From Amoebophrya sp. A120 (taxonomy: Eukaryota > Protista > Dinoflagellata), in assembly GCA_905178155.1 (NCBI GenBank), contig CAJINV010000006.1, positions 2,954,658 through 3,018,657 of the forward strand: a stretch of 64,000 nucleotides of DNA, written 5' to 3'. The notes under the pieces were generated by a model. That model had not been told where the DNA came from, did not search any database, and saw only the letters and a program-made list of their open reading frames with translations. This document shows, in pieces, positions 7,101-63,100 of this stretch. Each line of letters begins with the position of its first letter. Positions within the stretch are counted from its first letter, which is position 1. The position numbers and the translations under genes were made by a program.

Positions 7101-10100
7101 GAACGATGACCGAAGCGTCTTCGGGGGTTCTGTTTGCCTCCGTGCTCGCAGGAAGCTGCGAAGTAAAATCGGCAACGAGCCGCAGAAGCGAGCAGAGTGC
7201 GATGAGTGGGTGGCAAGGTGGTAGTGCCACTTTTGTTGGCGGTGGAGGAACTGAAGATCATCAAAACGCAAAAATACAACTGCAAAACCCGCCAGCAATT
7301 GCAACACAGAGGAGCACGACCGACAACTACCAGCAGGAACAAGGTTTCACCATCCCGCAGAGCGGTGGTAGTAGTAAGAGAACGGGTGGAGCGTCTTCGG
7401 GCGCCTCGGAAGATAGTAAAGTAGACCACCGGACGAGCTTTCTCACGAGTTACCACTCGCTCTACCTCGACAGCGTGGTTTATGGAAGCGTCAGGATTGA
7501 AATCGTAAAAGTTGAATTAGTTTGTGATGCATAAAATGCAACCCACACAGTGCCTGTCTTGGAGAGTAGGCAAGGGAGGCAGATTTCAAGCCTATTGAGG
7601 GGTAGAAATCGGGCTGCTAAAGTAGCACGACAAAAGGGATCTTCCTTACCCAAATAGCATGACAAACTGGATTTCGGTTCTACCCAAATTTGTCATGCGC
7701 CACTTGGAAACTGGTTTACAACTGGCATCCGTTTTATGCATCACAAATTATTTCAACTTTTAGGATTTCGATCCTGACGCTTCCATATGGTTTTACAGCC
7801 GGCGGGGACCACGAGAAGTAGTCGAGACGACGGCGGGAAGACAGAGAATACACACGGAGGTGGAGCTGCAACGGTTTTCCACAATGAAGACCTTTATTCG
7901 GAGCAGAACAGCACGATGGGACAAGACCTAGCCGCTTCCGGGGGTATGATTCCGGCCGGCCCCCCATCCGTCGTAGAAACCCACGAGTGGTCCTGTCACG
8001 AGGACTCCGATGCGGTATCAACTGCAAATATGTCCAGGTCTGGAAACTTACTTGTGATGCAAGGCAGGGAACATTTCATTAGTGCGCACACTGTATTGCG
8101 CTCCTGTCAAGCATGACAAGTGTTTCCGCGGTTCTGAGTTGCGTACTCCGCATGAGAAACTGCGCTTTCGCATTACAGCCAAGAGGAGCTCATCTTCGCG
8201 GCCACGCAATAGAGAGTTCAGAGCCAACACCCAGACAAGCATGACAACTCTCGGAATTTTCCAGACTCAGACATACTTGCAGCGCATGCGCGGACGAACA
8301 AGGGACCATCAACTCAGGTCGTGCCAGCGATCTTCATATGGAGCGGTTGGTCGGGGCACTGGAGCACGCGACGGGCGGTCCTACTGCTGCTGCAAGTGAT
8401 TTTTCGCCGCGACGAGGGCCCGTTCTTCTAGTAGCGCACGAAGAGAAACAAGAAGAACCTCCTGCCGTGAAGAAACAAGGCGCCCAAGTAGAGATGAACA
8501 ACGATGTTGACGTGGACCACTACGATCATCGCGCGGCCGGGGACAACATCAACGGCGCAACTCCTGAGCGTCTAGAAGTTGTACCCAAGAACGAACCTTC
8601 CTACGCCGAGGAAGTGGAGGAAGAAGTTCGGCTAGACAACATGATGTCACAACCTACACAGCAAGAAAACTGTGTTACAGCTAGTACAGGAGATTCACAG
8701 ATGAAGTTTGGCACCACGGACAAGGACAACTTCGACCACCTCGTCCACTGCGAAGATGACAACGCCAACAACAATATCGAAGATATGGCGTTCTCAACCG
8801 TTACATCCTCAACTGTTACATGGATTTGTGATGCAAGAACGGCAACAGTGAAAGAGGGGACCTTGCGCGTCTTGCATGACAGATTTCGCACGGATTCTCA
8901 GCCTGTTGGGCTCTTCGAGAATTTGTATTGCGAAGCCGCTTGATCATCGTGTCGATTCTGATTGCAATTCTGCATGACAAATCATGTAACAGTTGAAAAT
9001 GTAACATTTGAGAACGCCATAGAAGAGGAAATTTTCCAGTCCCTTGAAGATATGGAAGTGAAAAACAGGTTTGCGACTACCGCGAACCCGGACTACCTAT
9101 CAAGTGCAAAAGTATCTAGGTCTGGAAGAATGCATGGTTGTCATGGAAGTTTGGCATGACTCTTGAATCTGTCATGCACGTTGCCCAAGCGCTCCATTTT
9201 TCTTTCATGCAGAAACGCAGTTTGTCATGCAGAATAGGCAACAACTAGAAGCTCAGAAACTTGTCATGCTGAGCCAGCACTTGTGGCGTCATCATGATAC
9301 GCCACCCAGCATCACAAGTTTCCAGACCCAGTAGACATTTTTGCATTTGATACTATCCGAGCTTTTTCGATTCTGCGGTGGAAACGGAAACGGAGGTATC
9401 AAATGCAAATATGTCTGGGTCTGGAAGATTGTGAGACTTGTCATGCTTGTCTGGCATGACCAAAAAGTTTGTGATGCGTTTCCAAAAAGAGATCCTTTTG
9501 CCTGTCATGCAAAAACGCAGTTTGTCATGCGAAAAACGCAACACAAGGAAGCGCAGATATTTCTCATGCTTGGCGGTGCATTGCAGAGCATTCACTGTTC
9601 CCAACGCAGCATTACGAGTTTCCAGACCCAGTCATTTTTGCAGTTGATAGGAGGTGTGTGATGCGGAGGAAGATGAGCAGCATGGGGATGAAAACCAAGA
9701 TTGTCCACCTCGTGGATCATCCGACGTTGGTAATATCAAAGATTCCACTTCTACTACTTCTGCGACCGAGCAAAGCGAAGAGGTGAGGACTTTTTCCGAC
9801 GCTTTAAGGACCGCATTGGAGAAGGAAGTTGAGAGAAAGTTTGCTGGTGAAAATGACGGAGCGGATTCTGTTTATGCATTGCAAATATGTCTGGGTCTGG
9901 AACGATGCAAACTTGTGATGCGGATGCTGGAACACGCACAAATCTGTATTGCGTAGTCAGCAAAAGGTACCTGATTTTTGTCTCCAGAAAAGGGCATCTG
10001 TCTTCATGCGGAGAAGGCATTGAGAAGCCCCCACAGAGTTTGTCATGCTCTGTGTGCATTCCAGACCTTTTTGTAGATGTGAAAGATGCATCACAAATGT

Positions 10101-14543: not shown

Positions 14544-17500
14544 ATGGCGACCAGCATGATGAGGAATTCATTATTTGCAAGCAGAGGCACCAGCGCAGCC
14601 GCAGCGTCGTCACTTCTCGGTGGCCCGGCCATGATTTTTTTCTTCTCTACCATTCTCTTCCTCGCACATCAACCGGTGACGGCTTTTATCAACTGCAAAA
14701 GTATCTTACTAGTAGCAATTGCAATACAAATTTTTAGCTCAGCATGACAACTGGAATTTGTCATGCTGTTTTACAATTGGCATGGAAATTTGTAATGCAT
14801 GATTGTGATTACTACGAGTACGAAATACTTTTGCACAGGATAGTTTTGTCCCGCTGGCAAGTGTCCTACCAAGATGTGGGCTCTGAGGACTACGTGCTCA
14901 CGATGTCGTGGTACCACGATTATCAACTGCAAAAATGTCTGGGTCTGGAAGATTCTAAACTTGTCATGCTAAATCTGAAGCATGCAAAAATCTGTGTTGC
15001 ATGATTGCCAAAAGTCGTCCAGTTTTCACCAAGTCGGGAGGGAGTTTCTCATGCAGGATAGGCATGAGAGAGATCGCACAGAATCTGTCATGCTAGGTCC
15101 TGCATTCCAGACCTCATGGGTCATGGAAAAGCAGCATGACAAATTGCGCATTCTTCCAGACCCAGACATTTTTACATTTGATAACGATCCCCAGCTCGCG
15201 ATTGTCGGGCGTGACCTAGCGAAAAATCCCGGCCTATGCTGTGCAACAGCGTCCCCATCCCAGCGTTGGGAAATCTGCAAGACAAATCAACAAACCTTGG
15301 CTGTTTCGCATGACAAGTTTTGGCTCGCAATGTCGCCGCGTTTAGCTAGTGCAGCAGCATCGCAAATCTAGGTCTAGCCTCTTATGCTGTTCCGAGCATC
15401 ACAAATTTGAATTTCAAAACAGCACTAGAAAATGCGTCCCATGGGGCTCCGCATGAGAGGCACTTGTAGCATGCAGATTTGCATGACAACTCTGGGGCGG
15501 GGACGTTTTTACACAGGATACGGTCAGCAGGACGGATCGACCTCGAAGACCAAAGCTGCTCTAGGGGTGTGCGACCCTCAGTCCACCGCAAAAGCGGCCT
15601 ATCAAATGTAAAAATGTCTGGGTCTGGAAACTTGTGATGCTGGGTGGCGTCTCATGGTGAGGCTACAAATGCTGGCTCAGCATGACAAGTTTCTGAGCTC
15701 CTAGGTGTTGCCTATTCTGCATGACAAACTGCGCTTCTGCATCTTCTTCTTCCACTGCGTGTCTCCACCTAGGGGTATCGGCAGAGGCTAAATCTGTTCT
15801 AACGCCCAGGTATTGGCAGAGGCTAAATCTGTTCTAACGCCGACCCGCCAGGAGTTAAATGGTACTACTACTACTACTACTACTACTACAACTGCATCTT
15901 CTTCTTCACAGAAAAACCAAGCTCTTGGGTAACTTGCATGACAGATTTAAGAGTCATGCCAGACAAGCATGACAAACATGAATTCTTCCAGACCCAGACA
16001 TTTTTACATTTGATACGGCCGACGGGAAGCTGTATTGGGCGCCCAGGATTTTTCCGCAGCCGGTTTCGGCTATGGATGTGTCAGGATTGCAATCGACAAA
16101 GTTGAAATAACTTGCAATGCATAAAATCGATACCAATTGGACCCACAGTTTCTAGTCGGTGCATGACAAATTTTATCCGTAGTACCGGAGGCCAGTTTGT
16201 GATGCTGTTTCGGGCAAAGGGGCTCCCCTCTGTCATGCTAATCAGCAGCCCAATTGTTCTCGACCCTTACCAGCACTACAAAAATCTGCTTCTCTTGCGT
16301 CCCCTGCAATAGAGGCAATTTCTGCGTTGCATTTCATGCATGGCAAACTATTTCATCCTGACACAACCATATCGGCTGAGGTGACGAGAAAAACCGGGAT
16401 TCACTTTGCTTCCGTCGACTGGCAACCCTGCGGACACAAGGACGTATCCTGAGTAAAAACGTACCCACACCAGAGTTAGGATGAGGGTTTTGCAACACAA
16501 ACCTACGAGTTTTGTGCGTCACGCATGACAAGTTCAACTCTGCAGTGTAGTGCAGGTTAGCAAGTGCAGCCGCATCACAAATCCAGCTGCTCCTCCTGTT
16601 CACAGCATCACAAATTCCAAAACACGATTGGAAATGGCTCTCATGGGGATGCGCATTATAAGTCTTCCTGTCTTTGCAAATCTGCATTACAACTCTGGTG
16701 TGGGTACGTTTTTACTCAGGATAGGACGTCGTGATTTGTCATGGCGAGTCCCACTACGACTTTCACCTCTATTACGTCTCGCAGGCGGAGTTGAATGGGT
16801 ATACGTGCAGCAATCCAAACCCGGTGTGCCCAGATTTGGATGACACCAACCAGAGAAACCACAAGTTTTACAAGCTCATGAAGGGCAACATTCCCTCCTT
16901 CGCGGACAAAGCCACCGGAGACACGCAACAGTTCAACTTCTGCGTGGACCCGACGAGCGCGATGCCGAACTCGGGCATCCTATCAAATGCAAATATCCCT
17001 GGATGTCTGGAAGGATGCCAACTTGTGATGCTGCCTTTGGATAATTCTACACGAAATCTGTATTGCGTGAAAAGCAGTAAAAGAGGTCCACTCTTTGCTA
17101 CGCGGAGAGGTGGGCATTTCTCATGCGGTATGGGCATCGGAAAGCCCTCGCAGAATCATCACAGACGTCGTGGGTCATGCAAAAGCTGCATGACAATAAA
17201 CTTCTGCACGACTCTTCCAGACATCCAAGGATATTTGCATTTGATACATCCACTACGGGGACAAATCGGAAACGCTTTCCGAGTATCCTGTGCAAAAGTA
17301 TCTGATACTCGTATTGCAATCATGCATTACAAATTTTTTTCTTGAGGTAAATCAGCATTACAAATTTTCTTTCTCATGCTGAGGAAATTTGTAATGCATT
17401 TATACGAGTACGATACTTTTGCCATTCATACCGAGTGGAGAAACCCGGTGACGGTGCTGGGGTCCTACGACTGCAAGTTGACCTATCAAATGCAAAAATG

Positions 17501-20500
17501 TCTGGGTCTGGAAGGTTGGAACTTGTCATGCTAAATCTAAATCATGCTAAAAACTGTGCTGCGTGATTGCTAAAAGTTGTCCACTTTTGACCTAATCGGG
17601 AGGGAGTTTCTCATGCAGGATAGGCATGAGAGAGATCGCACAGAATCTGTCATGCTATGTCCTACATACCAGACCTCATGGGCCATAGAAAACCTGCATG
17701 ACAAGACTGGCAATCTTCCAGACCCAGACATGTTTGCGTTGCATATGACCTTTTTCGAGCCCATGTTCTCCTGGAAGTGGGTACAGGGGAAGACGGGCAG
17801 CGGGGAGCTATGCATTGCAAAAATGTCTGGGTCTGGAAAAGTTGAACTTGTGTTGCATGTCTTGCATTCCTGAAAAATCTGTGTAGTTGCACAGCCAGCA
17901 AGAAAGGCGCTACTTTTTCGTCCTGCAAAAACGCAGTTTGTCATGCGTGCTACGCATCAGACGGCGTCAATCATGCTTGGCTGCACTTGAGAGCGCCAGT
18001 CTCATCCAAACTTTAGCATCACAAATTTCCAGACCCAGACATATTTGCATTTGATAGGAGTGGCCCAAATACGACAGCGGCCGGATCACATACGACGAGA
18101 AAAATTTCCGCCCTTTACCGGACTCCTGGTCGGTGGAAGTCGACCGGGTGGCCTGCGCGACAACCAACCCGAGCTCGTATCAAAAACAAAAATCCCCCCT
18201 GCCCATATCGAAAACGAGATTTGTCTTGCTGTATTTGAGTACACAAATCACATTTGCGTTGCAGTGGAGCACTGCACGCAGATTGCAAGCCTAGCTAGGG
18301 GCCTTTTGGTGTAGGCGCCTAGCATGGTAGACGGCTGCGCTGTAAACCTTACAGCGTCCTCACAAATCGCCTGCATGGCGTGACTGACAGCCTGGACTTG
18401 CCTCCTTGCAAGACAGACGCGATTTGTGGCCACAAATCTGCGTCGCAAATTTTCAGACGGATGCGCTTTCAATATGGGAAGGGGGATTTTTCCTTGCGAT
18501 AGCTCGGATTGCAAAATCACGGTGACCATCCGCGGCAAGCGGTGCGGCGCCAGCGGGTGCGGGGCCCTGCCGCAGGATATCTGCTGCAAATATGTCTGAG
18601 TCTGGAAGATTGCCGCGCTTGTCATGCAGGTTTTGCATGACCCATGAGGTCTGATTTGTAGGACATAGCCTGACAAATTCTGTGACAGTTCTATAATCAT
18701 GCCTATTTTACATGAGAAACTGCCTCTCGGTTAGGTCAAAAGTGGACAGCTTTTGGTAATCATGCCACTACTACACAGATTTTTGCATGTTCTTTCAGTG
18801 TTAGCATGACAAGTTGCAGAGTTTCAGACATCCAGGGATATTTGCAATGCATACAGGAGTGTGGCCTGCAACGGAACTGTATGAACTGCAAAAGTATCGT
18901 ACTCGTATAAATGCATGACGTCGCCTCGGTAGTGTCGTGGCCTCGGTACGCCACTACAATTTGGCGCACCGAGGCTAGAAGAAGTTTCTTTAGAACGCGC
19001 ATACAAAATGGCGCACCGAGGCCAAAAGTGCCAAGTTTTCGGAGTGGCCGCCTCGGTGCACCGAGGCCGACGGCCTCGGTACGCCAAATTGTATGCCGGA
19101 ACGAAGCAGCAGACGGGCGGAACACAATCACGAAAATGGAGAAAAGCGCTCCGGGCGCAGCGGTGCCAAGATTGGTTTTTTTGGGGTGAGACGGTGAGAC
19201 ACGTGAAACAAATTCGATGTTGTTGCCGTGCGTTTGGGGCAGTGCTCGTCGCGCGACGCCGCGAGCAGAAGCTCCCGCGGAAGGCAGGGGGCGACGCAGG
19301 CGCGGGCGTGTGCGAAGCGAAAAAACGCACGCGAAATCGCGAAGCATGCAAGCGCAGAAAAAATCAAAACGGAGAAACTTCTCCAGCCCGCACACAGTTG
19401 CGCTGCGATGCGTGTCTGTAAAATTAGGACTCTATAGTAAAAGAAGCTGGTCGCAAAAGTTTAGCGCAAGATAGTCCCGCGCGAAAAGGAAAAACAAAAA
19501 GCGCGGCAACAGATATAAAATAAAACAGAGCACAGCGATGAAAATGAGCAAAATCCTGAATAGGTACCGGCATGGCTGCAGGCGCGCTGGCATTATTTAG
19601 TAATTGAGTAAGCTGCGCGCGGCTATAGTTACACGGTGGAGCCACAGATTATAGATCGGATAATATTGCAGTGCGGATGACATAAAAAGGCGCGAACTAG
19701 ACGAATTGCGTTGCAGAGCGGAACGGGACAGACAAAAAAAACTACAGGCTGCGCTATGTACCACACAAAAAAAAAGTAAAATCTAGTAGAGAGAAGCGCA
19801 GCACTGAGGGGTGCGCGAGCATGGAGTGAGTTGCGTCCAGTGTGAGGCGGAGGTGGTGCAACGACGTGAATGAGCCGAAGCTCATCCAATGCGTCAGATT
19901 GGACCACCAACGCGCCCCCACCTGGGCGGAAACAAATGAAAGGCAAGTTTTTGCAGGAGAAAGTAATGATCTTGGTTCATAGTACTGGAACTTACAGAAA
20001 AAAGCAGAGCAAATAAAATCAGTTGCGGTGAGCGAAAGTCGCAAGCTGGTGCGCTCGACGTTCGCGACGCTGCACGCTACTCACACCGCGTCCAAGAGGG
20101 AATCGGGGTGGTTCGCCATCGTCGCTGCCATTTCGCGAAATTGGACGGGCAGGTCGGCGCGCGCCGCGACTTCGACGTGCCAGGCTCCGCACAGGACTCC
20201 CGGCAACCCGTTTGCCACCTTGGCTTTGCGCAGCTTCGTCCCCGTCAGGTGGACACACCAAACGGGATCGGCAACCGTTTTGGCGTAGTTGACGGTCGCG
20301 CGCAGCTTCGCGCGCTCGTCGCCAGCTTTGTTATACCACCAAATCTTCGCGCGCAGGCCGCCGGCACTGTACAGGACCGCGTACATGCCGCGCGAAATGA
20401 AGCGCACCGAGTCCGCAACCGCGCGGAACTGGCCCACGTCGCGGTAGTCGGCGTCGCCAAGGTCGCGAAACATGGCCGGCGGCTGCTGCAGCGGCGCTGC

Positions 20501-23500
20501 GATGTGCCAAGCTGCGGAGCAAGCGCTTGGAGACACGCGGGGGGGAGCGGGCGCAGCTTTCCCCGGCGGGCCGGGTGGGCCGATCGCGTCTTGCAGGACC
20601 TCGAGCACGCCAACAGCGGGCGGCGGCGCAGCGGCTGCCTTTTTGGCGGCGGGCTGTTTCGCTTTCGGCGGCGCGGCGAGTCGCCCGCCCGTCTTCGGCG
20701 GCGGCGTTTTAGACGGAAGCAGGGGCGCAAGCGTATCCGCCGCCGCCGGCAAGAGGGTCGCCGCGGCTGGCTTCAAGTTGTCCCGGTGCTGCCCACGATA
20801 AGTGCGCCCATCGATGTCAATGTCAGCAAGCTTGCCCGTGAGCGCCACCACTGTCCCGGGCCCGTGCCAACCTTTCCGCCCGAGCTGCGTATTTTTCAAA
20901 AATACGCTCTGCCCGATTTGCAGCTCCGGCGGCTCCGGCCGTTGCCCCCCCTGCTTGTTGAAAAACTGCTTGCGATTCTTGGTCGCGTTGGCTGCCGCCA
21001 CGTCCTTGGCCGCAGCAATGGACGCGGGGCGGTCCTGCTCAATGCGCTCCACCGCAGCAGCACGTTCGCCGAACAGCGATTCGGCGTCACTGCTGTCGGG
21101 CGACGGGGAAGAAGCGCTGTCGCCCGGACGCGGCGTCTCGAGCGCTGGCTCCTCGTCGGTCGAAAAATCGGCGTCCCAGGCGCCTTCGAACTCGGCCCGA
21201 AGAGCGGGCAAAGGGTCCGGCTGCGCGGAGCTGCTTGCAGCGATGGACAACGCGGCAGCTTGGTCCAACGTGCGCAGGTCAACGCCGTACAACAGGCGCG
21301 CCGCGCTTGTTTTATGGGGCGCTCAGGCGCGACGCGCTCAGCCGCGGCAGGTGTTGCCATGCAAGCACGCAGTGCGACGGAGGCAAAGTAACTGCGCCCC
21401 GCATGAAAAACGCGCGAGAGGCCACGCAGCAGGCAAATGGAAGCGAGGCCCGTGAGCAGTGCCAGCAGTTTACGTGCCTCGCAGGGGCTGTTCTTTCATT
21501 GCATGCAAAAGGGCGCCGCGGCTGAGCGCGTAACGGCTGGCGGCGCCATACTTGCCGCGGGCGCGGCGGGAAGCGGCTGCGTTCGTTGCCAGCTGCACCA
21601 GCGGAACATATTCCGGCCAGCGGCTCAGGTCCCGGCGCGCCAACTGGAGGGAAACGCGACCCACCATTTTTTCGGCCTGTCCGTTGGACATCGGGCGCCC
21701 CGGCGAGATCGTCGTGTGGCGAAACCCGAGAGCCTCCGCAAGGCGCTTGATGGCGGCAAATTCCGTCCCGGCATGAACACGAAAGCCGCAGCGCACGCGG
21801 CCCCCCGGTGATAGCAAAAGCCTGGCGCTTTTGCCGAGCCGGGGGCGAATGCGGCGCGGCTGTTCACTTGCTTAACCGTTGTCCGTGTGGTATTCCAGGC
21901 CAACCCCGAAAAAGCTCACCAGCTTGACCTGTCGTAAGGATCGCAAAAGCGTTTCGATTTGGAAAAGCAAAGGCGCGGCGCGCCTACTGAATGCAAAAGC
22001 AAAAGCGCAACGAAGAGGCACGGCACCAAAAAAAAAAAAGAGGGAAAAAACAAGAAGCATACCCAGGCACCGTGGACGCACGCCATCGACTTCCGCTCGA
22101 TGGGTTCCAGGAAGCAATAGCCCGTGACCCACGCCTATGGCACTCGCAAACGTTGCCCCCCCAGCTCTCTCGCGCATGAATTTGCAACGCAAGAACGGCG
22201 AGGCAAAGCGGAAACGGGTAGATTGCGCCCTTTGCGTTACAGAGGCAGCACAGATTTAGGCACTGTCTAGCCCTGCGGATAGTTGTCATGCCAGAAGCAG
22301 CTTAATCGCGGCGAATGCCAAAGCGCGTAGCCGCTGGGAAGGCAACAACTGCGAACGCCATAGCTCGACCGCCACAAAAAGGTATCGGCAACTTATGCAG
22401 GCGCCGAGACCGAAATAGGCAAAATCAAAAAAGAAAAATCTGGCGCCCCCCCTGGCGGGGTGCTGGACTCTCGCTTTTCGATTCTGACGCCCTCGGGCCT
22501 CGTTGGCCAAACTAGCCGTGGCGGCATGCTTGGGCGCGTCAGAATCGAAAGGGGCTCCGGAGGGGGTGACTTAGTTTCGTCCCTCCCCCCAAGGACTGCC
22601 AGAATTTTTTTTGCGATTTTGTCGATTTCGATCGTGGCCCCCATACGGTTTTCGACGAGCGGCATCTTTTTCAAGTCCAAAGCCCAGCGGTCGAGGGGCG
22701 CGGCCTGCTCGAAGGCGGCGCGCTGGAAACCGCTGCGGAAGGTCGCTGGCGCGCTGAAGGGCGCAGACCGCTGGCAGGCCAGGCAATCGGTTTTCGCTTT
22801 CGCCGCTGCTTCTTTCATCCCACGGAAATACACCTTCCAGCGCTGCAGGACAGATAACGTCGCCTCCCGCCCCCCGTGCGTCTCCTCATGCGCGCGGCGA
22901 GTGAGATCCGCGGCGCGCTCGTCGTCCCAAACGATTTCGTGCCATTGTCCCCGCAGGCTGTCATTGGCTTTGCCCAGGAAGCGCGTCCCCATGCGCACCA
23001 GAATTTTGCCGTCGCCCCACATGAAATCCTCTTCCCGCTGCTTCCACCAGCGGGCCGCGTAGCGCCCCAGCGGCGCCGCCAATGGTTCCCCCTGAAGCAG
23101 CGCGGCCATCTGGTGCTGCGTCACCGGAAACAGCTCCGCGGACGCCGGGTCTGCTGCTTCCAGCGGAAGTTCGGGCCCCGCGTCCTCGCCCAGGAACAAG
23201 AGGTCCGAAACTTTCGGTGAAGGCGGGCGCTTCGGGTTGCGCAGGTTGCGCTCGACCGCGACAACCGGCACGGCAGACGGGTCGAACATGAGGACGCGGC
23301 AGGTGAAGCCGTTCTTCGGATTGACCGAGCCGACGGCTCGGCCAAGTTGCCCGCTGCGATTCGCGTCCGGGTCGGTGTTGTTGTACTGGTCGTACAGTTC
23401 GGCCCGGGTTGCGTCCGCCTTCACCTGCGTGGCGAACGCGTGCCAAACCTGGTAATTCCCACCCCCAAACAGCGCGTCGGCGGCTCCCGCTCCGCTCGTT

Positions 23501-26500
23501 TGCGTGACCAAAAAGGCGCCCCAGACCTTTGCGCCGTCCACCAGGGTCGCGGCCGTGCGGCTGTAGTCGTCGACCAATATGCCACCAAAGACACACCCCC
23601 CCCTTACCGACTTCCCCCCCCCGCGAAGAGCACGAAGCCCGATGGACAACCGGCGAAAGGACCTTTACGGCCGAGAGGTAACATTGCCCGGATACCGATC
23701 GGGCGGAGAAGTTGCCGCGCACCTAATTCCGCTCGGGAATTCCGAAAACGCAGCGCGGCGGGGCGCAGCTGTGGGCCCGTGGCCGCCAGAAGTGGGGCGG
23801 CTCGCTTGGCGCATCGCGCGCGCGGCGCCCCTGCTTCACTGAATGAGCTTGGGCGGGCTGTCGCCCGCTTACGACCTGAGTCCGCCGAAATGGCGTCAGC
23901 TAAACTTCCAGAACCCGAAAAAAATACGAGAACAAGCAGCAAAAGCAAGAGAAGCTGCGAGGCAAATCAGCAATTTCCGACCGTAAACGGTGGCGGCCCC
24001 GCTCGAGCAGGGCCGCCGCCCTTGCATGCAGAACCTCAGCGCCTAGCTTACAGGGGGGGGGGCGGGGGGGGGGCGCGTCGCGCTTCTTAATGTCCACCAT
24101 CACGTACGGCGTGCCAAGCGGTTTCCAAAAACAGTGACTCCCCTGGGCGGCCGTTTCGTCGATGGCCCGCTGCCAGGAACCTTGGTCGCAGGCGGAAACC
24201 GTGGGCAGCTCGGTCCGCTGCCGCCGGCTCTTGTCGCGCGGGATGACCGACAGCTCCACGGGACCAACGAGCGCGCGGCAGATCTGGGCCATGTCCACAT
24301 CGAGCGCACGCACGTCGCCCGCACTGGGGTCCACAGGAGGCGCGCCGTCCGCGTTCTGCGCCGGGGTGCTGGCGGCTGCCTGCTGCGCCGCGGGTTGACC
24401 GAGCGGCCCACGAGAAGCTCCAACCAGAAGCGGCGCGGTTGTCGCGGCAGCGGTTGGCGCAGCTTTCGGCGGGACGGTAGGCGGCGCCCCGGTCGATGGA
24501 AGCGGCGCGGCCGTCGCGGTCGCCTTCGCTTTTTTCGCCGCAGGCCACATGGCCGACGAGTCGCCCGCGCCATCGTCGCCCGGTGGGAACTGCGGCGGCG
24601 GCGCGCCGTGTTGTGCGGCGATGCGGGCCAGGCAGGTGCGCTGCTTTTCCGACCAACGCGCGTAGCAAGGCAGCTCCTTCATGAAGGTGCGCTCCCAGTC
24701 CGTCAAGTTTCCCGCCCCAATGTCGTCGCGGACTTTGTCGACAGTGGATTTTTTCAAGCGGACCCCTTCCAGCTTCCGCTGAATGCGGTCCCACGTCGCC
24801 GCCCGCCTTTCCGTGTTGTCGACAAATTCGGGCGGCTTGTCCAACAGGTACTGCCGCTCGAATTTATCCAGGTACATGTGGAGCTCGGGATCGATCAGCT
24901 CGTCCAGGGCGGTGCGCGGCGGGGGGGCGTCCGAATCCCCCGACGAAGCCCGCGCCATGAAGTCACTGGCCCAGCTGGCTCCCGGCTGCGCGTCTCCCGG
25001 GGCACCCGCGCCCGGGTTGCCCCCCTGATCCTGTTGCCCGCTTTGCTGCATCGCTGTGCGTGCGTGCGCTGTTCGTTCGCTTTCCCTGCTGCTTTCGTTC
25101 GCTGCGTGCTGTCCCTGCGGGCGGTTGCTCTGCTCGGTTTCTTGCTGCTAGTTGTCTCCTGCTTGTGCTGCTCGCGCCAAGTTTTTTTGTGCGTTTTCCC
25201 CTTTAAGCGTTTGCGCTAAGTGTTTCGAGTTTGTTTGCGAAAGTTTTGCGACTAAATCCTTAACCTAGTGAAATCCCAAGCGGATACGTAGCGCCCTTAT
25301 AAAGAGTGGGTGAGCTAAGTTACCGGGTCGGGGTGTCATCGCTGTGGCATGGGGGGGATCGAGGCAAAACCTTCGCGAGATGAAACGAAAACTCCAACAC
25401 GGGAAACTAGCGCGAAAGCGAAGCCCGCAGGACGAAGGCAGCGCACAGCGCCTGCTGCACACAATGCAAAAAGAGGAGGCCAACGAGCACCGAGCGGCCC
25501 CGCCCGTGGCAGCGGACCGCGTGCCAAACATGGCGAAAACGACCGACCACGGGGCCCGCGCGGACTTTCGCGGAGTTGCCCCTTCGTTTGTGTCTTTGTA
25601 CGAATACCGAACGACTTCGATTTTTCTTCGCACGATTTACCGACAAAGAGCAGCGGGGCCTCAAAGTTTTTTTTGGTTTGCACGATACACCGAGCCAAAG
25701 CGTTCGCACGACAGGCCGAGCAGCTGAGCCAGGCACGGAAGCGAGGGAAGCGGCTCGCGCCATAGTCTAGAGGGAACTTACGCGCCAAAAGCTTGCTTGC
25801 ACATCAGACAGACAGGCCCGGGCGAAGTCCCGCCCTAATTGCAGACTAAAAACTTGCTAAATTGAACCGGCGCCCGGGCCCCGGCAGGCTTTGGGGTTTT
25901 CCGTGTTTTCAAGGCCCAGCGCAGCCGCGCAGCCGGCTCTTCTCTGGGTTTTCAGCTTTGGGGGCTTGGCCGCATTTTCGGCGGCCTTCCGGACGGTGGG
26001 TATGTCGCCCGTCTTGCGCGTATTTTGTGGCACGGGCCTGCCGGTTTGTCTCTCTGGGGTCCGGCTCGGAAATTCCGGCCTTCGGCGGGGTAGGGTTCCG
26101 GAGTCCGCTAAATTAGTCCGCTAATCGGGTCGCAAATTTTCAGAAAAGTGCCCAGAACGCAGTTGCTAATTTGCATTTCTAATAGTCAGCTAAAATTTTG
26201 GGCCTTTTCCGGAAGGGGTCTGCTAACCCCACTCCTAATAGTCATCTAATTGGTTCGGGCGTTGTGTTTTGGGTCTGCTAACCTGTAGCTAATTGCGCAA
26301 GGCAAGAAAATCCAATGGGATTTCCCTGTTGTTCGAGCAGGGTGTGAACAGCAGGGAAATCGCATTGGTTTTTGGCTTTGCTGACAAATTAGCAGACGCA
26401 TTCGCGCCCCGGGGGGGGCTTAATTAGCAGACAAATTAGCAGACGCATTAGCAGACACCAAAAAAAATTAGCACCCAATTAAAGACCCAATTAGCAGGGG

Positions 26501-29500
26501 CTTTCTTGGAATCGTCTGTGGCGTTTAGCAGACTCCCGCGAGGGGGTCGGGGGGGTAAAATTAGCAGACAAATTAGCACGGTTATCTCCGAGGTTGGTTT
26601 CCGTGCGGACATATTTGGGTTACCTTGGCCGGGCGCTTGGGCGCTCGTATTTGTTCGCGAGAACCGGCTTCCGGTAGTTGTCTGGCTTTGTTATCTGAAT
26701 TGCGTTAGAGGGCAGGTCGTCGCGTCCTCCTTCGTCCTTGTTGGCAGGCTTCTTTCTGTTGTGCCTCCGGGCATGGTTTCTGGCTTCGGGGGATTTGCAA
26801 ATTAGCAACTTTTTAGAGTCCGATTAAAGTTATTAGGTCGCCCGGGCCTGTCTGCCTGATGCACAAGCGCGCGGCCCCCGAAGCAACTAGAAAAAGAAAG
26901 AAACCCGCCGCCCCCCCTCGCCCCTCGCCTTCTCGGGGGGGGGGGACCGGGGGCCCATCGGCTAACTCGCGAGGCCATGGACGCGCGCGGGCCTTGGGGG
27001 GCAGAAAAACAAAACCCGCACCCTGGCTCGCGTCCGAGGGCAAAGTAAAAAACGCAGGAGGCGCAGCCGTCTGCGCCACCTGGGGGGGGCGCGCGATGGG
27101 ACGTCTTTGCGCGCCGCCTCGGTGCGCCAAAATGTATTGTGAAGGCGCGCCGCTACAATACAAATTTTGTAGGTGGGCAAAAAGACATACTTTCGCGGGC
27201 TCGGTGCTGCCATACGTTACAAACCGCACCGGGCTCGGTACTGCTTTTTGGCGGGTTTTCTCAATGAAAAAAGCGCGAAAATTGTAACGCCCCACATACG
27301 ATTTGGCGCACCGAGTCGTATGTGCGTACCTAGGCCACGTCATGCATTACAAATTTCCTCAGCATGAGAGATGAAATTTGTAATGCGGATTTACCTTAAG
27401 TAAAAGATTTGTAATGCAAGACTTGCATTTATACGAGTGCGATACTTTTGCACAGGATAAACTGCATCAACAATCAATTCATGGGCAGAATTATCAAATG
27501 CAAACACGTCTGGGTCTGGGAGATTTGTCATGCTAGTCTGGCATGACTCTGAACTCTGTATTGCGTGGCCGCAAAGACGAGCCCCCCTTGCCTGTTATGC
27601 AAAAGCGCAGTTATTTCTCATGCGGAGTACGCAATTCAGAACCACGTCCACGGGAAAACTTGTCATGCTTTGCAGCGCATTACAGTTTCCTCACTTTATT
27701 TCCTTCCTCGCATCACAAGTTTCCAGACATCCATGGATATTTGCATTCGATAAGAATGCCAGCGGTGGTTCCGAGCCCCGTGCCGGCGCCGCAAAGCACT
27801 GCTGCAGGCGTACCGGCTCCCGCACCGGCATCCAGTGCCAGTAGTAGAACAACGCCAACAACGACCAATTACGTCCAATCGAGCAGTCTATCCTGTGCAA
27901 AAGTATCGTACTCGTACAAATGCAAGTCTTGCATTACAAATCTTGTTCCCAAGGCAAATCTGCATTACAAATTTTATCTCTCATGCTAAGGAAATTTGTA
28001 ATGCATTTATACGAGTACGTGTACGATATTTTTGCAATGCATACAGTCCGTCAGCCAGCAACTACAACAGCAGTCCTTCGACTGCAAGCATCCTGGCAAA
28101 CGCGGCGAGTAGTCCGAGCCCGTCGCCGTCAGTTGCCTCCTCCTCGCCGTCTCCAGCGGGAGTCAGCCCCACGCCGCTATTCTGAGTAAAAACGTCCCCA
28201 TCCCAGAGTTGTCATCCAATTCTGCATGCCAAAAAAGTTTCTCATGCGGAGCCCTATGAGGAGCGTTTTCTCCTCGTGTTTTGGAATTTGTGGTACTAGA
28301 ATCAGAACGCTATGCTAGATCCGTCATGCTTCTGAACTAGCAAAACAGGATTACACTACGAGGACAAACTTGTCATGCCAGACAACCAAGGCTGGCTGAT
28401 TTGTCTAGCACATTTCCCATCTTGACTCTGGTGTGGGGACGCTTTTAATCAGGATAGCCTCTTCCCGCACCGGCACCCCTCACGCCGGAAACCATCACCC
28501 AAAACGCCGTACAAAAGCAGTTTGAGGTATGGGAGTGTCAGAATCGAAATCGACAAAGTCGAAATAAAATCTGCAATGCATGTAAACGTAAGACACGCAA
28601 GGCCTGTTTTGGGGACCAGGCAAATGAGACCGATTGCAATCCTCTTTAGGGGAGGGCGATGTGCTGCCAGAGTAGCATGGCAGGAGCAGTCTTCTTTGCC
28701 GAAACAGCATGACAGACTGGATTTTAGCGCTCCCAAAATTTGTCATGCGCTACTTGCAAACTGGGGCTCCAACCAGTATCGATTTTATGCATCACAAATC
28801 ATTTCGATTTTGCTGATTTCGATCCTGACAGTTCCATATGAGGGGATCCAACGGGTGCAGGTCTTGGGATTGAACGGCTACATCATTCCCTCGCACTTTG
28901 TATCAAATGTAAAAATGTCTGGGTCTGGAAGAATGCACCTTGTGATGCTGAATTTGGATTCCAAAAAAATCTGTATTGCATGAGCAGCAAAGGGAATGCA
29001 ATTTTTGCTACGCGGAGAGGGCATTTGTCGTGTGGAATAGGCATCGCGAAGCCTTCAAAAAGTCTGTGATGCTAGGGCATGCATCACAGACATCGTGGCC
29101 AATGCAAAACATGCATGACAAGTCTCAGAATCTTCCAGACCCAGACATTTTTACATTTGATACTTTGAGGAGGCCATGCGGGGGGGTTTTAGCCGGTACC
29201 TGGGGATCAACGTGTCGCAGATTACCATCAAGTATGGATTGCAAAAATGTCTGGGTCTGGAAGAATTCAAGACTTGTCATGCCAATTTTAGATGACCCAT
29301 GACGCCTGTAATGCATATCCTAGCATCACAGATTTTTACGATGCTTCCTGATGCCTATTCCGCATGAGAGACGCCGTCTCCGTGTAGCACAAACTGGACT
29401 CCTCTTGCTGGTCATGCAATACAGATTTTTTTAGAATGCAGAGACAGCATCACAAGTTGCAACCTTCCAGACCCAGACATTTTTGCATTTGATATCAAGC

Positions 29501-31331
29501 AGATGAGCGTGGTCGGGGACACGAGAAACTATCCTGTGCGAACGTATCGTACTCGTATAAATATGCAAGTCTTGCATCACAATTCACAAATCTTGCTCTT
29601 CAGGTAAATCCGCATTACAAATTTTATTTCTCATGCTGAGGAAATTTGTAATGCAAATGCATTTATACGAGTGCGATACTTTTGCAATGCATAGAAACTC
29701 GTTGGTGATGAATTCTGCACGGCAAAGGCTTTTACTCGACGACCAGATGTTGGAGGACAGAGGAGAACAAGGCGAACCTGACCGGCATATTAGCAAATCT
29801 GATGTCATGCTAGTAGAAAACAAGAACCTCCAGCAAACAAACTCCCTGCTCACCGAAGTTATTTCATCGTCCAACGCGCGCAGGCTACAGACGCGGAGTC
29901 AAACCTTATCGTACGAAAAAGTTTGTTTCGCTGCAAGCATTTTGCAAAAACTTTTGCATCTTCACAAGCGTGCTGTTTATGTTCTACATCACAGAGAAAA
30001 TTTGAATTTGCCGTACGAGATTTTTCCTAAGGGAAAACACAGCTGGAAATTAATCCATCGTCTTTCATTTCGTGTAGCAAGACAAACACTGCTCAGATAC
30101 ATTGTCCTCTGCATAATTACAATTTTACAGTGAAACAGTTTTTTCTTGCGATAAACCTCGATCGACGTGCACTATGTCATCGAAATGGTGGTTCTCAACT
30201 CGTCGGCGGCGCAAGCGACGTCTACCGATTCGCAGGTGCAGAAGGTGTATTCATTGCAAAATTGTCTGGGTCTGGAAACTTGTGATGCAACTTGCATTAT
30301 GCAAGGAAGGGAATGGTGGCGTCACTATGTATTATGCGCGGGCTAGCATGACAAGTTTTTTCGTGGTTCTGTGTTGCGTATCCCGTATGGAAAACTGCGT
30401 TTTTGCACGACACGGAGAAAAAGCTCTTTGCGGCCACGCAATACAGAGTTTAGAGTCATGCCAGACTAGCATGCCAAACCTCGCAATCTCCCAGACCCAG
30501 ACATATTTGCACTTGATAAGGTCGAATCGCTGACAAACGGCGCGGTAAACGCGAACACGAGTGTATCGTAAGGAAAAATGTCCCCTCCCCAGATTAAAAA
30601 CGTACTTCTCAGAAAATTTGTAATGCTGATTCGTGACCACAAATCTTTTTGTCTTGCAAGAAGGCAATTCTACAGTCTCCGCCGCATTATGCGGACGGTT
30701 TGTGATGCTGCTTGGGCTACAGCGTAGACATTTGCGATGCTAAGCGTCCACGTCAGAAGCCCTGTACTCAGGCGCGGCATATGCCTGCAGTCCTCTACTG
30801 CAAGACAGCTCGGATTTGTGTACGGAAATCCAGCATAAGACAGCTTCGTTTTGATACTGGGAGGGAAAGCTTTTTACTTTTGATAGAATGACGCGGAGCT
30901 GTTGCGAGCGTCACTCGACTATGCAAAGAAAAAACTGTTTCACTGTGATGATTTTGCAAGATCTGCATCACAAGTTTGCTACACATGAGACTAAAAACCT
31001 GTCATGCGCGTTTAATACCAAGGGAAAACACGGTTGAAACTCCAATGCTCTATGCAGGTGTAGCAAGACAAATACGTTGTGTGCTCCATTCTATGCATCA
31101 CAAGTTTACAGGGAAGCAGGTTTTTCGTGCGATATCGACATGGAGATCTCTACTAGAGTGCCCGGTCTCACCGTATCATCCGCCACGGCGATGCAGCCTG
31201 CGAGAGGGGATTTGTCCAGCAACGCAGTGACGCGGTATGGAGCTTCTACAAGCGGCTCGTTACTCCTGTCGCATTTCGTTGCAGGCATCGGGTTCTGGTT
31301 CGGGATGTTTGGGTTGCTGGTGTTGGGGTGA
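14544..31331 (+). CDS. Secreted/surface protein with DUF5602 (TTHB210-like) domain, S/T/P-rich linker and hydrophobic C-terminus (TM or GPI signal); 24 introners
   Basis: Spliced product has an N-terminal hydrophobic segment (MIFFFSTILFLAHQPVTA), then HFASVDWQPCGHKDVVICHGESHYDFHLYY, AMPNSGIHYGDK and TVLGSYDCKLTFFEPMFSW, which match my recollection of DUF5602 motifs (WNPxGH, PHFDFHFY, GSYDGxxxFxEPM). It ends FWFGMFGLLVLG*. Introners: 14687-14842, 14921-15183, 15235-15520, 15600-16015, 16071-16371, 16445-16723, 16981-17246, 17284-17430, 17484-17745, 17809-18056, 18178-18501, 18578-18853, 18880-27459, 27492-27752, 27889-28043, 28178-28456, 28528-28838, 28901-29162, 29233-29494, 29530-29693, 29907-30153, 30248-30518, 30564-30885, 30920-31134. 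Confidence 0.85.
15753..15891 (+). mobile_element. 5'-truncated non-LTR retroelement (LINE/SINE) 3' end inside an introner
   Basis: 16-bp direct repeat CTGCATCTTCTTCTTC at 15737-52 and 15892-907, a (TAC)n tail, and an internal tandem copy of GGTAT[C/T]GGCAGAGGCTAAATCTGTTCTAACGCC. Confidence 0.7.
16445..16723. mobile_element. Introner family C (TATCCTGAGTAAAAACGT.CCCAC.CCAGAGT), ~280 bp
   Basis: TSD GGACG. Other copies start at 11820, 12150, 15235, 28178, 31639, 37263, 46733, 48375, 49923, 57585. Confidence 0.95.
20081..23649 (-). CDS. Retroviral-type (rve) DDE integrase/transposase with HHCC zinc finger and GPY/F-type C-terminal module; multi-exon
   Basis: AHEETHGGREAT...YFRGMK...CLACQR (HHCC); PLDRWALD (D1 ~22675); RYLFVAVE; WVTGYCFLEPIERKS; FFGVGLEYHTDNG|TEF (D2 ~21881); SPGRPMSNGQAEK (E ~21671, D-33-E); GKSAARLLYG; LQIGQSVFLK...WHGPGTV...HRDNLKP. 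Interruptions: introners 22394-22645, 22136-22362, 21313-21550; GT-AG intron 21929-22062; GT..CG intron 21769-21876. The true 5' end is uncertain. Confidence 0.88.
23900..25051 (-). CDS. Upstream ORF of the Ginger-like element (unknown function; possibly the first exon of the integrase gene)
   Basis: 383-aa ORF with a protein-like core (LDELIDPELHMYLDKFERQYLLDKP...WERTFMKELP). A GTAAGC donor-like site near 24050 suggests splicing to downstream exons. Confidence 0.55.
   Translation of the reverse strand: MQQSGQQDQGGNPGAGAPGDAQPGASWASDFMARASSGDSDAPPPRTALDELIDPELHMYLDKFERQYLLDKPPEFVDNTERRAATWDRIQRKLEGVRLKKSTVDKVRDDIGAGNLTDWERTFMKELPCYARWSEKQRTCLARIAAQHGAPPPQFPPGDDGAGDSSAMWPAAKKAKATATAAPLPSTGAPPTVPPKAAPTAAATTAPLLVGASRGPLGQPAAQQAAASTPAQNADGAPPVDPSAGDVRALDVDMAQICRALVGPVELSVIPRDKSRRQRTELPTVSACDQGSWQRAIDETAAQGSHCFWKPLGTPYVMVDIKKRDAPPPRPPPCKLGAEVLHARAAALLERGRHRLRSEIADLPRSFSCFCCLFSYFFRVLEV
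25795..26868. mobile_element. ~1.07-kb foldback/MITE-like segment inside the Ginger-like element
   Basis: Inverted ends GCTTGCACATCAGACAGACAGGCCCGGGCGA / TCGCCCGGGCCTGTCTGCCTGATGCACAAGC. Interior has many GCTAAT/ATTAGCAGAC repeats. No clear TSD. Confidence 0.6.
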
Positions 31332-36789: not shown

Positions 36790-37627
36790 ATGGAAGTGCA
36801 GAAGAACGACGGTGGGCAAAAAAACCTGCTGAAGCGCGTATGGCGTGCTCAAAGGAGACAATCTCAATTGGAACAAGACAGAGCCGGAATGTCTCATGCA
36901 AAAGATAAAAGACAAAAGTATGAGGCTACTTATGAACATTGGAGTATGGCGCATTTTTTTCCTTTGCTTCTCCGTCAGGAACTTGTCATGCAAAATGTAG
37001 AAGATACCACTGCGATTATTTACGTAGGCAGCTGAGGCGCATGATTTCATGTCGGAAGTTGCTGCTGCCTCAATCTCGTTTGAGATCGTCGCGGCTGAGC
37101 ACGCCATAGCGTGGGCGCGGTGGCGGCGGGACGGGTCAGACTCAGGCTCAGCACATCACTTCTGATGGCCCCGACCAGGAAGGACTGGTTGACGACGACC
37201 ACACTGTCTTCGAACACGCCACGGCTTCTGCTTTGGACGACCCCCCGCTTGATGATGAAGGTTATCCTGAGTAAAATCGCCTCCAAGGACCCAAAGTTCA
37301 TCGTGGCAGCTTTGTTGCACAAGGCCCAGAAGCTCGCTCGAGCTGTTGCGCATAAGTAGCGCAGTCGTAGGTAGGTTGCGCTGTTGCGTCTTGCGTCGGG
37401 TTCTTCATATAAGTAATGACAGAGTCCCAAGAAGCAGCAGGGCAAGTATATTGCCCCACATGATGGGGCTGCCGCTGCGCATATATAAGACGCAGTCTGG
37501 GCATGCCAATCCGGAATGGGGAATATGTTGAGGAGGTGTAAGCGTTTTTGCTCAGGATAAAGTCCCGGCGCTGAACACCACGACGGCCGCGACTTACGGG
37601 TTCCTGCAGAAGCGGGATATTCCATAG
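36790..37627 (+). CDS. Possible small gene or gene fragment with two introners (start uncertain)
   Basis: Removing 36839-37108 and 37263-37559 gives MEVQKNDGGQKNLLKRGRGGGGTGQTQ...PPLDDEGPALNTTTAATYGFLQKRDIP*. The TSDs are imperfect. Confidence 0.35.
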
Positions 37628-60100: not shown

Positions 60101-63100
60101 TAAATGCAAGTCTTGCATTACAAGTCTTTTTCTTAAAGCAAATCCGCATGACAAATTTTATTTCTGATGCTGAGGAAATTTGTAATGCTAATGCATGTAT
60201 ACGATTACGAGTGCGATACTTTTGCAGTTCATAGACGGGCGAGGACGCCGACCTTTCCCAACGGCTACGCGCAGGTGGTAGACAGGCTGATATCAGCAAG
60301 AAAAATCCTCCCTCTCCATATCAAAACGGAAACCTGTGATGCAGATTTGTGATCACAAATCAGCCTTGTCATGCTACAAGGGAAAAGATGCGGACTGTAG
60401 TGCTAGGTGGCTTGGGAAATAAGCCTCGCATCTTCAGCATGACAGGAGGCAGCTGGAAGTGGGGAATAGCGTGACAAATTGCCTGCACACGAGGCCACAA
60501 CTGCGGCCCTTGGCCTTCTAGCAATGCAGGTCGATTTGTGTACTCAAATATATAGCGGCGGCAAAAGCTTATTTTTTGGAAAATTAAAAAAAGCATTGGG
60601 TGTCATAGATACTGGCCGCGAAGAGCACCACCATCGCCACGTGTGTCGAGCATGCTCGGCTGCGGCGCCTGTGCAGCCTCGGTTGGAATTAATCGGAGGA
60701 AAAGAAGGTCGGGCGCCTGGTTGACATAAATAATAGGTCCGGGGGGCTGGGCCTTACGAACTGCACTGCACTCGCGGGCCCGCGCTCTGGCTCGATGCCC
60801 CGCCGAGACCTGCGCCGATAGTAGTGGAGCCGCCGGCAACCGGGCCCTCGTGGCATGCTTGCCAGTGGCCTAGCGTATGTGTTTTGGCAGCGCGCCGGGC
60901 AGCAGGATGGGCCGGGGAGATGTGGCGAGGAGAAGCATTTCCCTGCCAGGTTTGTGAAAAGGCCTCGCGTAATGGCCGCGAGAAAATAACAACGCGCCCC
61001 GGGCTGCTAGGGGTGTGCGCTTTCCGCCTCCCGCAGCCCTTTCCGAAGCGTCGCCCGGCGGCTCTTGCTGCTTTTCTACCAGCTCTGGTGGTTGGCCCTT
61101 CGAGGGGCGATCGCTGGCGCGCCGGGGTTTCAGAGGGGCCGCGAAAGGGTCACCGGACTGGCAGGAGAACATGAAAAAAGCCCCGGAAACATGCGGCGGC
61201 CAAAAGCCGCGCCCGTTTTGAAACCTGGGAGTCAGAGCGCCTGCCGCCGGAGTACCACAACCAAACTCCGGGCTGGAGGGGCGGAAACTCTTGGTCGCTG
61301 CGGCTGTGTCACTCCCACCCCGGCCCCTGGAGGGGGCGTGGCAAGCAATTGGCCCGACCGAATGCCCGCCGCCCGGCACACCCCCAAAGCGCGGGGCTTT
61401 TGCCTCTTTTGGGGGGGCATGAAACGGCACCAAGCGGACTGCCTCTCCTGCGTGCGTTATGCTCCGCAAGGGCAGTGGGGGTTCGCAGAGTAAGCCAGGC
61501 CAGAAGGGCTTCATTGACCGCCAAAAGCGCCGCAAGCCCTGTCCCTTTCCTTTTTGCCGCGCCATAATCGGATCGGGACAAAGCACGTGGCCGAACCCTA
61601 CCCGCTCGACCAGTCCTACCGACTGCGCCAGGTCGGGCACCTTCAAAGGGGGCCAAGGACAGGGCGACGAAGATGCGCACCCACGGCCAAGGAAGGGGGC
61701 GCGCGCCCGCGAAGAAACGGCCGCCCACCCCTTCTGTGTGTTATCTCCGAGGCATGTCCCTAGCCCGCCCATCCGCGGAAACCCGGGGAAGCGGCAGGGC
61801 CCCGGCCGTGCCAAACGGACGAAAACCTCCCCCCCACCCGAGCATGCGCCGGCGGCGAGAGGAGGGGGAGCAACCTGAGCCGAACTTGTTGGGCCCTCTC
61901 TTCCGACAACCCGGAAACTGGTCGTCTCGAATGGGCAAAGGTTTCGTGGAACGGCGCGTGCCGAGCAGCCCGGGCCCAAGTGACACGCTTGTCGCTACGA
62001 CGGAGCTTCGGGTGGGAGGCTTCCCAACGGAAATGCGGGCCGGGCAACCGGAAACACCTTCCGGGGGAGGCTAAAGAGGCACCCCCCCAAAGTGGGTCCG
62101 TAGCATGCGGGGTCGCTCTTGCTTAGGGCCACTTTTGGAGACCCTATCCGGGCACCCCCGGCCGCGGGGCCCGGGGGGAGGCCGGAAGTGGAAAGCCAGC
62201 GGCGGCAAGGGCGGTCAAGCAGCACGCGGCCGACTTGCACCCCGGAGCGGCCGCGGGGCTGCGCAGCTGCCCGGAAGCGTGGCGCCGATTGCCTCGGCAA
62301 ACAAGAGCGCCGGCGATCCTGGCGCCCCACACGCGCTGGCTTCTGGTTTTGGCGCCATGCGTCCCTCGGTCTGGCCGAAGAAAAACAGCGACAACTAGCA
62401 CGGCCCACAGAATGCAGGTAGTGTTTTCCCCGGCAAATTGGTCCGCGTCCGCCCTGCATTGCCAGCTGGCCGGCTTCGCAATGTTGGCAGGGCGGCGCGC
62501 CGAAAGAGTAGGGCGTCCGTGAGGGTCCTGATGTTTTTGGCATCCTCTAAAAGGGCCCCGGGCGCCGCGCACCTCTGCGCCCTACCTCCGGCGCAAGCGC
62601 TGTGGGCCTCGGATCGGGCCAGGAAAACAGTGGGGCGGCGGAGCCAGGCCCAATCCTTTCCGCCGTACATTTTTCCGGAAATCGGCCAAAGGCACGGCGG
62701 TCGGCCGAGGGGGCTTTTCAGGTTGCCGCCCGCCCTGGTTGGGGCCACTAGAGCACGGCGCGCCGCGGTCGGGCCCCCCTTGCGCGGGCCGTCTGATCAG
62801 TTCCCCACCTGCAAAAAGGGGGGCCCGGCTGCCCCGCTGTGTTGCCCCGGGCTGTGGCGCTTGTACTCTAGCCTCCAAGCGTGCTGGCAGTGTCGCCGGG
62901 CGGCTGTTTTCCGCGAAATTTGTATACGAAATGCCGTCGGGTAGTTCTTGTAAGGAATCCCGCGACTTGGCGGAAGCTCGCTAGGGGGTGGCTTGGGAGG
63001 TGTAACCAAACCGCAGGCGCCTTGGTTGGGATGGAGCCACGCTTCCGCCCGCTTTGCAGAAATGGGGCTACTCGAAAAGGGCGAGCGCCGCGCGGTTGAG

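Follow-up and report, generated by a model that had tools for sequence, protein, structure and literature searches.

Did a DNA transposon of Amoebophrya sp. A120 go on jumping after introners had entered the gene for its transposase, or did the introners land in a copy that was already dead? The first-pass annotation of this locus favoured the former: it placed three introners inside an integrase-like catalytic core, and proposed that the transposon had kept functioning through a non-canonical splicing pathway and would passively spread introners. We consider it fairly probable that the introners were gained without a change in the protein, that the transposon lineage stayed active by way of host splicing, and that its last jump was into an introner that still splices.

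The host gene and the landing site

Elements of 150–340 nt that start with TAT, end with ATA and carry inverted arms are dense across the 64-kb window (the whole stretch of DNA analysed here, 64,000 nt). Our census gave 82 candidate TAT..ATA pairs, 80 of them outside the transposon region; the flanking 5-mer is perfect in 53 of these 80 and matches at 4/5 positions in 10, and some of the remainder are mis-paired ends. Introner elements of A120, in the available part of Farhat et al. (PMC7789003), have TAT-starting inverted repeats, direct repeats of 3–5 nt over the junctions, a length of about 240 nt and a hairpin, and the TAT..ATA elements of the window are these introner elements. One of them, at 15600-16015, is 416 nt long, exceeding its family's length by about 150 nt; its arms are perfect, and inside it lie a 41-nt tandem duplication and a (TAC)n run. 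In addition, an introner that begins near 60292 appears to contain a GC-rich 3.1-kb element, at 60551-63668, whose 52-nt terminal inverted repeats (88%) start TATAGCGGCGGC; no long ORF of a recognisable family could be seen in this element.

The features that frame the locus are as follows.

14849..31331, plus strand: host gene (the part checked), predicted secreted or surface protein, with 23 TAT..ATA introners within the stretch
18880..27459, plus strand: young host introner, split by the transposon; 149 nt without it
18916..27342, minus strand: DNA transposon of 8427 nt (8.4 kb), ends TGACGT..ACGTCA; its gene is antisense to the host gene
18933..19096, no strand: left sub-terminal repeats, with a second copy of the terminal motif and a TTTGGCGCACCGAG-type motif three times
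27114..27342, no strand: right sub-terminal repeats and terminus, with relatives elsewhere in the genome

The host gene matches CAD7953920.1 / GSA120T00020745001 of Amoebophrya sp. A120, one exon doing so at 99%. When the 23 elements are removed from 14849 onward, each with 5 nt, 655 of 656 residues are identical to CAD7953920.1, and the rule of element plus 5 nt is good for 23/23 host-gene introners, with the cut lying 1 or 2 nt upstream of TAT, as placed by two imperfect duplications. Because this removal reproduces a public protein, the rule is independently calibrated. The family to which the gene belongs has a layout (14849-31331) of a Cys/His-rich domain, a Ser/Pro/Thr linker and a hydrophobic tail; it includes an A25 orthologue and 14 further matches in eukaryote and metagenome sets, none of them with a Pfam domain.

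One of the introners of this gene is the landing site of the transposon, a nesting that the first-pass annotation had overlooked. Its 5-nt duplication is perfect (AACTG at 18875-18879 and 27460-27464), ten members of its family in the window are 76–89% identical to it, and by its sequence it is young. The CAD7953920.1 model omits the whole 8.6 kb between these duplications and joins the exons exactly as element plus 5 nt. Since the public protein is continuous there and the A120 gene annotation was made from transcript alignments (PMC7789003), splicing likely removes the 8.6-kb unit from the host transcript in one piece; the ends of the introner likely still define an 8.6-kb intron, and the host gene would have been spared. 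The 6-mer RTGCAY, the target of the transposon here, occurs at 3.4 per kb in the 62 listed introners against 1.4 elsewhere, and once in 1.8 kb of host exons. This density may steer insertions toward introners, with one insertion site known.

A transposon with a split integrase gene

The two termini of the transposon are inverted at 14 of 17 end bases, and past these bases the alignment is only patchy. TGCA is perfect on both sides and gives a 4-bp duplication; a 6-bp reading, ATGCAT with non-TG ends, is formally possible. Ends of the form TG..CA with a 4-bp duplication suit integrase chemistry better than the 6-bp reading does. The TTTGGCGCACCGAG-type motif has five matches in the window, all close to the transposon ends, a number that 0 of 100 shuffles reach.

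Copy state was judged from contigs of one DNA run (X1), which may be the source of the assembly and in which depth is not copy number. With that reading, the interior (19317-25838) lies on two unique contigs of depth about 44–45 with 0 differences, and the ends lie on contigs of depth 148–393 with 3–4 differences (the one at 27114-27308 has depth 393 and 4 differences), together with a more diverged relative of the left end. No further interior copy carrying the three introners was seen in the X1 contigs, and no second integrase copy lies elsewhere in the window. The pattern reads as one full copy and a few derivatives with common ends; the end relatives elsewhere are likely non-autonomous derivatives. 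The two interior contigs abut without overlap in a long G run (24052-24072), and the homopolymer length near the end of ORF1, an upstream reading frame, may be uncertain. The noncoding segment 25795-26868 contains nested inverted repeats (25795-25825 with 26838-26868), a hairpin (26307-26373) and repeated AAATTAGCAGAC motifs; its relatives reach a depth of about 150 in X1, and it may have inserted separately or have a regulatory role.

The integrase gene lies on the minus strand and is given here in the direction of reading.

24089..25051, minus strand: upstream ORF1, 321 aa from the first Met, GC3 0.79, no Pfam or PHROG match
23603..24107, minus strand: inferred candidate sixth intron, GT..AG, one of many frame-keeping joins
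22647..23598, minus strand: exon with an N-terminal region of no known family, H2C2 zinc finger and first catalytic Asp (WALD)
22394..22645, no strand: old introner 1, predicted intron about 22390-22646; arms resembling family E of the window
22364..22389, minus strand: micro-exon, RYLFVAVE strand of the core
22136..22362, no strand: old introner 2; predicted intron about 22132-22363
22063..22131, minus strand: exon, VTGYCFLEP ... HGAW
21929..22062, minus strand: canonical GT-AG intron, 134 nt, pyrimidine-rich
21877..21928, minus strand: exon with second catalytic Asp (EYHTDN)
21769..21876, minus strand: non-canonical GT..CG intron, 108 nt, splitting TDNG from TEF; the junction slides 1–2 nt
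21552..21768, minus strand: exon with catalytic Glu (NGQAE), D-33-E spacing like that of the homologue P0001
21313..21550, no strand: old introner 3, 65% GC; predicted intron about 21309-21551
20081..21308, minus strand: last exon, about 408 aa, with the core end, a helical linker, a GWHGPG stretch, a Pro/Ala linker and a C-terminal domain

It had been claimed that removal of the three introners, each with 5 nt, restores the core. The frame is indeed kept at each site, but a stop remains at codon 397. The core has five interruptions, three introners, a GT-AG intron and a GT..CG intron, the last two of which were overlooked by the first-pass annotation. With all five removed in silico from 23598 onward, the frame runs for 847 codons and ends at a stop; this spliced frame has an H2C2 finger, and its D, D-33-E triad (D308, D365 and E399) is intact. 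Only when the intron at 21769-21876 is taken out does the frame hold and the DNGTEF motif of P0001 align. Canonical AG acceptors within it were rejected, as they give the wrong frame; its CG end may mark a non-canonical intron of the genus or a dead acceptor. As for the 5-nt spacing, homology to P0001 favours it at the middle element, where +5 scores 242, +2 scores 236 and +8 scores 234, but at the outer two the values +2, +5 and +8 score equally, so that +5 there follows from the host-gene rule. A further intron, for which many frame-keeping joins exist, probably links ORF1 to the integrase exons. The GWHGPG stretch of the last exon, we assume, resembles a GPY/F module.

Each transposase exon alone scores under the Pfam cut-offs: PF17921 in the N-terminal exon reaches E 3.2e-5, below its cut-off, and rve_3 in exon 21552-21768 reaches E 0.0013. 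The last exon matches no Pfam family, and a YPYY motif was not seen in it by eye. Against 1.84 billion representatives, the N-terminal exon found one match, P0001, and no annotated A120 protein, although the host protein CAD7953920.1 is present in the same collection; silence or repeat masking could account for the absent A120 annotation. P0001 is uninterrupted and shares the DNGTEF motif and the D-33-E spacing; in an alignment of 275 columns the spliced frame is 28% identical to this intron-free protein (pairwise E 6.5e-26). Other searches added little. None of 7995 candidates among longer proteins matched the N-terminal exon, the core of P0001 as query found itself alone among 2891 candidates, and viral contigs held no related locus. 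All matches to the N-terminal region in an atlas search were under 0.9, and the C-terminal exon had no usable match there and folds as a single sequence at pLDDT 42. A PDB sequence search with P0002 gave none, PHROGs gave weak transposase matches only (E 0.02–0.27), an exact look-up of two versions of ORF1 found both absent, and an Rfam search of 18000-28500 gave no match.

Metagenome contigs yielded 0 of 541 candidates in one search and 1 of 139 in another. That one, L001, was rejected as a related element, being an ordinary Gypsy retrotransposon: its segment 687-9164 encodes a Gypsy-type polyprotein of 2825 aa. By eye, what we take to be a nucleoside-kinase-like segment and a PHD finger lie between its RNase H and integrase. 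The A120 transposase aligns to its integrase over finger and core at 30% identity (180 columns, pairwise E 1e-11). Unlike a Gypsy LTR retrotransposon, the A120 transposon has no detected LTRs or other terminal direct repeats, no detected protease or RNase H, and no Pfam match to a reverse transcriptase domain in the five frames scanned.

Among known DNA transposons, Ginger1 and Ginger2/Tdd combine a Gypsy-type integrase, with H2C2 finger and DDE core, with the lack of a reverse transcriptase; their ends are TG..CA and the duplication is 4 bp, 1–4 introns occur in some Ginger1 transposases, and one Ginger family consists of a single autonomous copy and non-autonomous copies with the same ends (PMC2836005, as far as the accessible text goes). 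The A120 transposon is like Ginger1 in its H2C2 zinc finger and Gypsy-like DDE core, and like Ginger generally in its TG..CA ends, 4-bp duplication, introns and lack of a reverse transcriptase. By the same accessible text (PMC2836005), it differs from both groups in that its ends read TGACG on both sides rather than TGTNR. Unlike Ginger1, it has an inverted repeat of about 17–19 nt with sub-terminal repeats rather than one of 40–270 bp, its target at the one known site is TGCA rather than CCGG/CCGT (the length of 4 fits if the ends are TG..CA), and it has an extra upstream ORF and no YPYY, OTU or Ulp1 that we could see; unlike Ginger2/Tdd, its target reads ATGCAT and not RTATAY (PMC2836005). 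Ginger1 introns are nearly all GT-AG, whereas this gene has three transposon-derived introners and one GT..CG intron (PMC2836005).

Two further systems come close. GingerRoot, an integrase-related DNA transposon of 4–13 kb, has TG..CA ends in a minority of cases and mostly TA..TA ends, inverted repeats of 100–150 bp, 6-bp duplications and no HHCC finger (PMC6839031, in part); the TG..CA ends and zinc finger of the A120 transposon do not agree with this. Family 38 of A120, an inverted-repeat element with LTR-retrotransposon-like homology that has been discussed as Ginger-like, is about 0.8 kb long, ends in TA/TA, duplicates 5 bp and gives rise to introns itself (PMC12130899, in part), whereas the transposon described here is 8.4 kb long with TG..CA ends and a 4-bp duplication, contains the complete integrase core, and forms no intron by itself. 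It is, on its sequence features, a Ginger-like integrase transposon; we do not file it as Ginger1 or Ginger2, because it departs from them in its ends, repeat length and target sequence.

Age of the inner introners and order of events

The three inverted-repeat elements stand where the first-pass annotation had put them, with a TAT start and an ATA end in 3/3. Their arms span 52 nt (73%), 31 nt (77%) and 37 nt (76%), and they fold into long terminal stems (z −2.89, −3.34 and −5.97). An ungapped 20/30 scan of 20084-23598 found 2 such pairs, against a mean of 0.002 (maximum 1) in 500 shuffles; a scan of this kind misses the third element, which has an indel in one arm. They are like published A120 introners in their TAT-starting inverted repeats and hairpin folding (PMC7789003). 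Unlike them, they interrupt the enzyme gene of a transposon, at least when set against the accessible part of that paper (PMC7789003), and their junction direct repeats match at only 5/15 positions, which we read as decay since element plus 5 nt keeps the frame. That the flanking 5-mers have diverged while the frame is kept had also been claimed, and it holds site by site: the matches are 2/5, 2/5 and 1/5, and element plus 5 nt is in frame at 3/3. The 23 host-gene introners, by comparison, match at 110 of 115 positions (Fisher p 3e-8).

The earlier family labels, E for introner 1 and I for the other two, survive at the arms, where introner 1 matches at 26/28 nt (E 2e-6). They do not extend to whole elements: identity there is 46–60% against a shuffle null of 46%, with the bodies near that null, and family E members are 66–85% alike. 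The GC content of the inner introners is 56–65%, vs 42–46% in their window relatives, and is shifted toward that of the transposon exons (66–68%). At 88% identity or more, they show little or no extra depth in X1 (bins of 44–58, and one of 99 through a short arm match).

All three inner introners are old and their landing site young, and the transposon would most likely have arrived already carrying them: this order is the most likely because the inner duplications have decayed while the landing site is young. The exons were likely under selection while the introners aged; in a neutral simulation of the spliced frame, 0.05–0.2% of 2000 runs were stop-free at 10% divergence, and 0/2000 at 20%. 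The stems of the introners, too, look maintained. The stem of introner 2 has, on the sense strand, 6 G-U and 0 A-C mismatches, but the excess of G-U over A-C pooled over the inner introners (8 vs 4) is not significant (p 0.19). Measured against the relative at 8784-9021, introners 2 and 3 carry 5 and 8 changes that are the same in both arms, every one of them A/T to G/C; measured against the relative at 36839-37108, only 4 are shared. With one or two references, and distant ones, such changes could also be subfamily states inherited from an ancestor.

The sequence of events that we propose runs as follows. Introners would have entered the transposase gene of an ancestral copy and would have been spliced out along with one copy of the 5-nt duplication, leaving the protein unchanged because they depart with that copy. 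The lineage would then have continued cut-and-paste transposition, with its TG..CA ends and 4-bp duplication, while selection held the exons open and the terminal stems paired and the intron interiors drifted. A final jump would have placed the transposon, in antisense, within a host introner whose ends still define an 8.6-kb intron. Under this scheme the transposase is likely made through the host's non-canonical splicing; three RNA runs (X4–X6) have 2, 1 and 0 partial reads on the stretch, next to none, host exons included. The suggestion that the transposon kept functioning gains from the age order, the open 847-codon frame and the intact DDE triad, all of which fit a jump after introner gain. 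The suggestion of passive introner spread is carried as far as one inferred jump; beyond it, the interior looks single-copy in X1 and only the ends have relatives.

It is unlikely, though the best of the alternatives, that the introners were tolerated at an earlier stage only and that this copy is now silent or recently dead, was moved in trans, or has a captured or domesticated gene as its interior. The single-copy interior between ends with relatives would be expected of such a copy, as would the missing annotated protein and the non-AG acceptor at 21769-21876, and neither ORF1 nor the C-terminal domain has a known family. However, frame and triad are fully intact, and in this genus >60% of introns are non-canonical (PMC7789003, in the part available). 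The integrase class also fits the transposon's own TG..CA ends and 4-bp duplication.

Still less probable is descent of the 149-nt introner family from the entire TAT..ATA unit at 18880-27459, which would then be its autonomous parent, with the integrase as mobiliser and the short members arising by internal deletion through TGCA microhomology. The unit does carry the ends and the 5-nt duplication of an introner around an integrase; its left break coincides with the inner edge of the 36-nt introner arm, and family 38 of A120 has been classed as Ginger with ends of TA/TA and a duplication of 5 bp (PMC12130899). Yet the inner unit has inverted ends of its own exactly at both breakpoints (those 14/17 bases) and its own sub-terminal repeats, features that a deletion would not create, and its terminal and sub-terminal motifs occur nowhere else in the window. 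Nesting is also not rare, as the unrelated inverted-repeat element at 60551-63668 lies in another introner.

Least credible of all, and very improbable, is that the three introners are post-mortem insertions into a transposon that had landed and died, since, for all the density of introners here (80 candidate pairs outside the transposon) and the lack of another copy showing the three, such insertions must postdate the host introner, and yet their duplications match at close to random levels (5/15 vs 110/115), their bodies are unlike those of their relatives, and the surrounding exons are stop-free over 847 codons.

Implications for introners and transposases in A120

Ginger transposases with introns and A120 genes with introners are both on record. 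A prior report of introners in a transposase core whose transposon in turn lies in an introner, or of this transposon, was not found in the literature covered, mostly non-subscription papers. The locus offers a dated example of two-way nesting of mobile elements, with introners in a transposase and the transposon of that transposase in an introner. If they are spliced as predicted, introners are harmless enough to sit in the catalytic core of a selfish element through rounds of transposition, and the ends of an introner are able to define an intron of 8.6 kb.

There is also a bearing on how introners are thought to move. Farhat et al. ruled out a general transposase-mediated mobilisation of introners, partly from the lack of an A120 transposase, putative transposases being reported in A25 only and none in A120 in the part of the paper available (PMC7789003). 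Exons that score below the cut-offs could explain why a domain search reported no A120 transposase. Split transposase genes would be easily missed by searches, and the DDE enzyme at this locus becomes visible only once the introns are removed. The transposon itself is probably not the mobiliser of the TAT..ATA introners, because its ends differ from introner ends.

A bolder reading, which we hold tentatively and would not expect to stand in full, is that this is the live master of a new integrase-type group, that its enzyme is made solely by the genus's hairpin-guided, non-canonical splicing, that it hides in introners because they are richer (about 2.5-fold) in its palindromic target, RTGCAY, and that other A120 transposases, the introner mobiliser included, may be similarly hidden. 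If A120 transposases are indeed hidden in exons too short for domain searches, the published argument from their absence would be overturned. A search for transposases on a de-intronised genome would make the question of the introner mobiliser directly testable.
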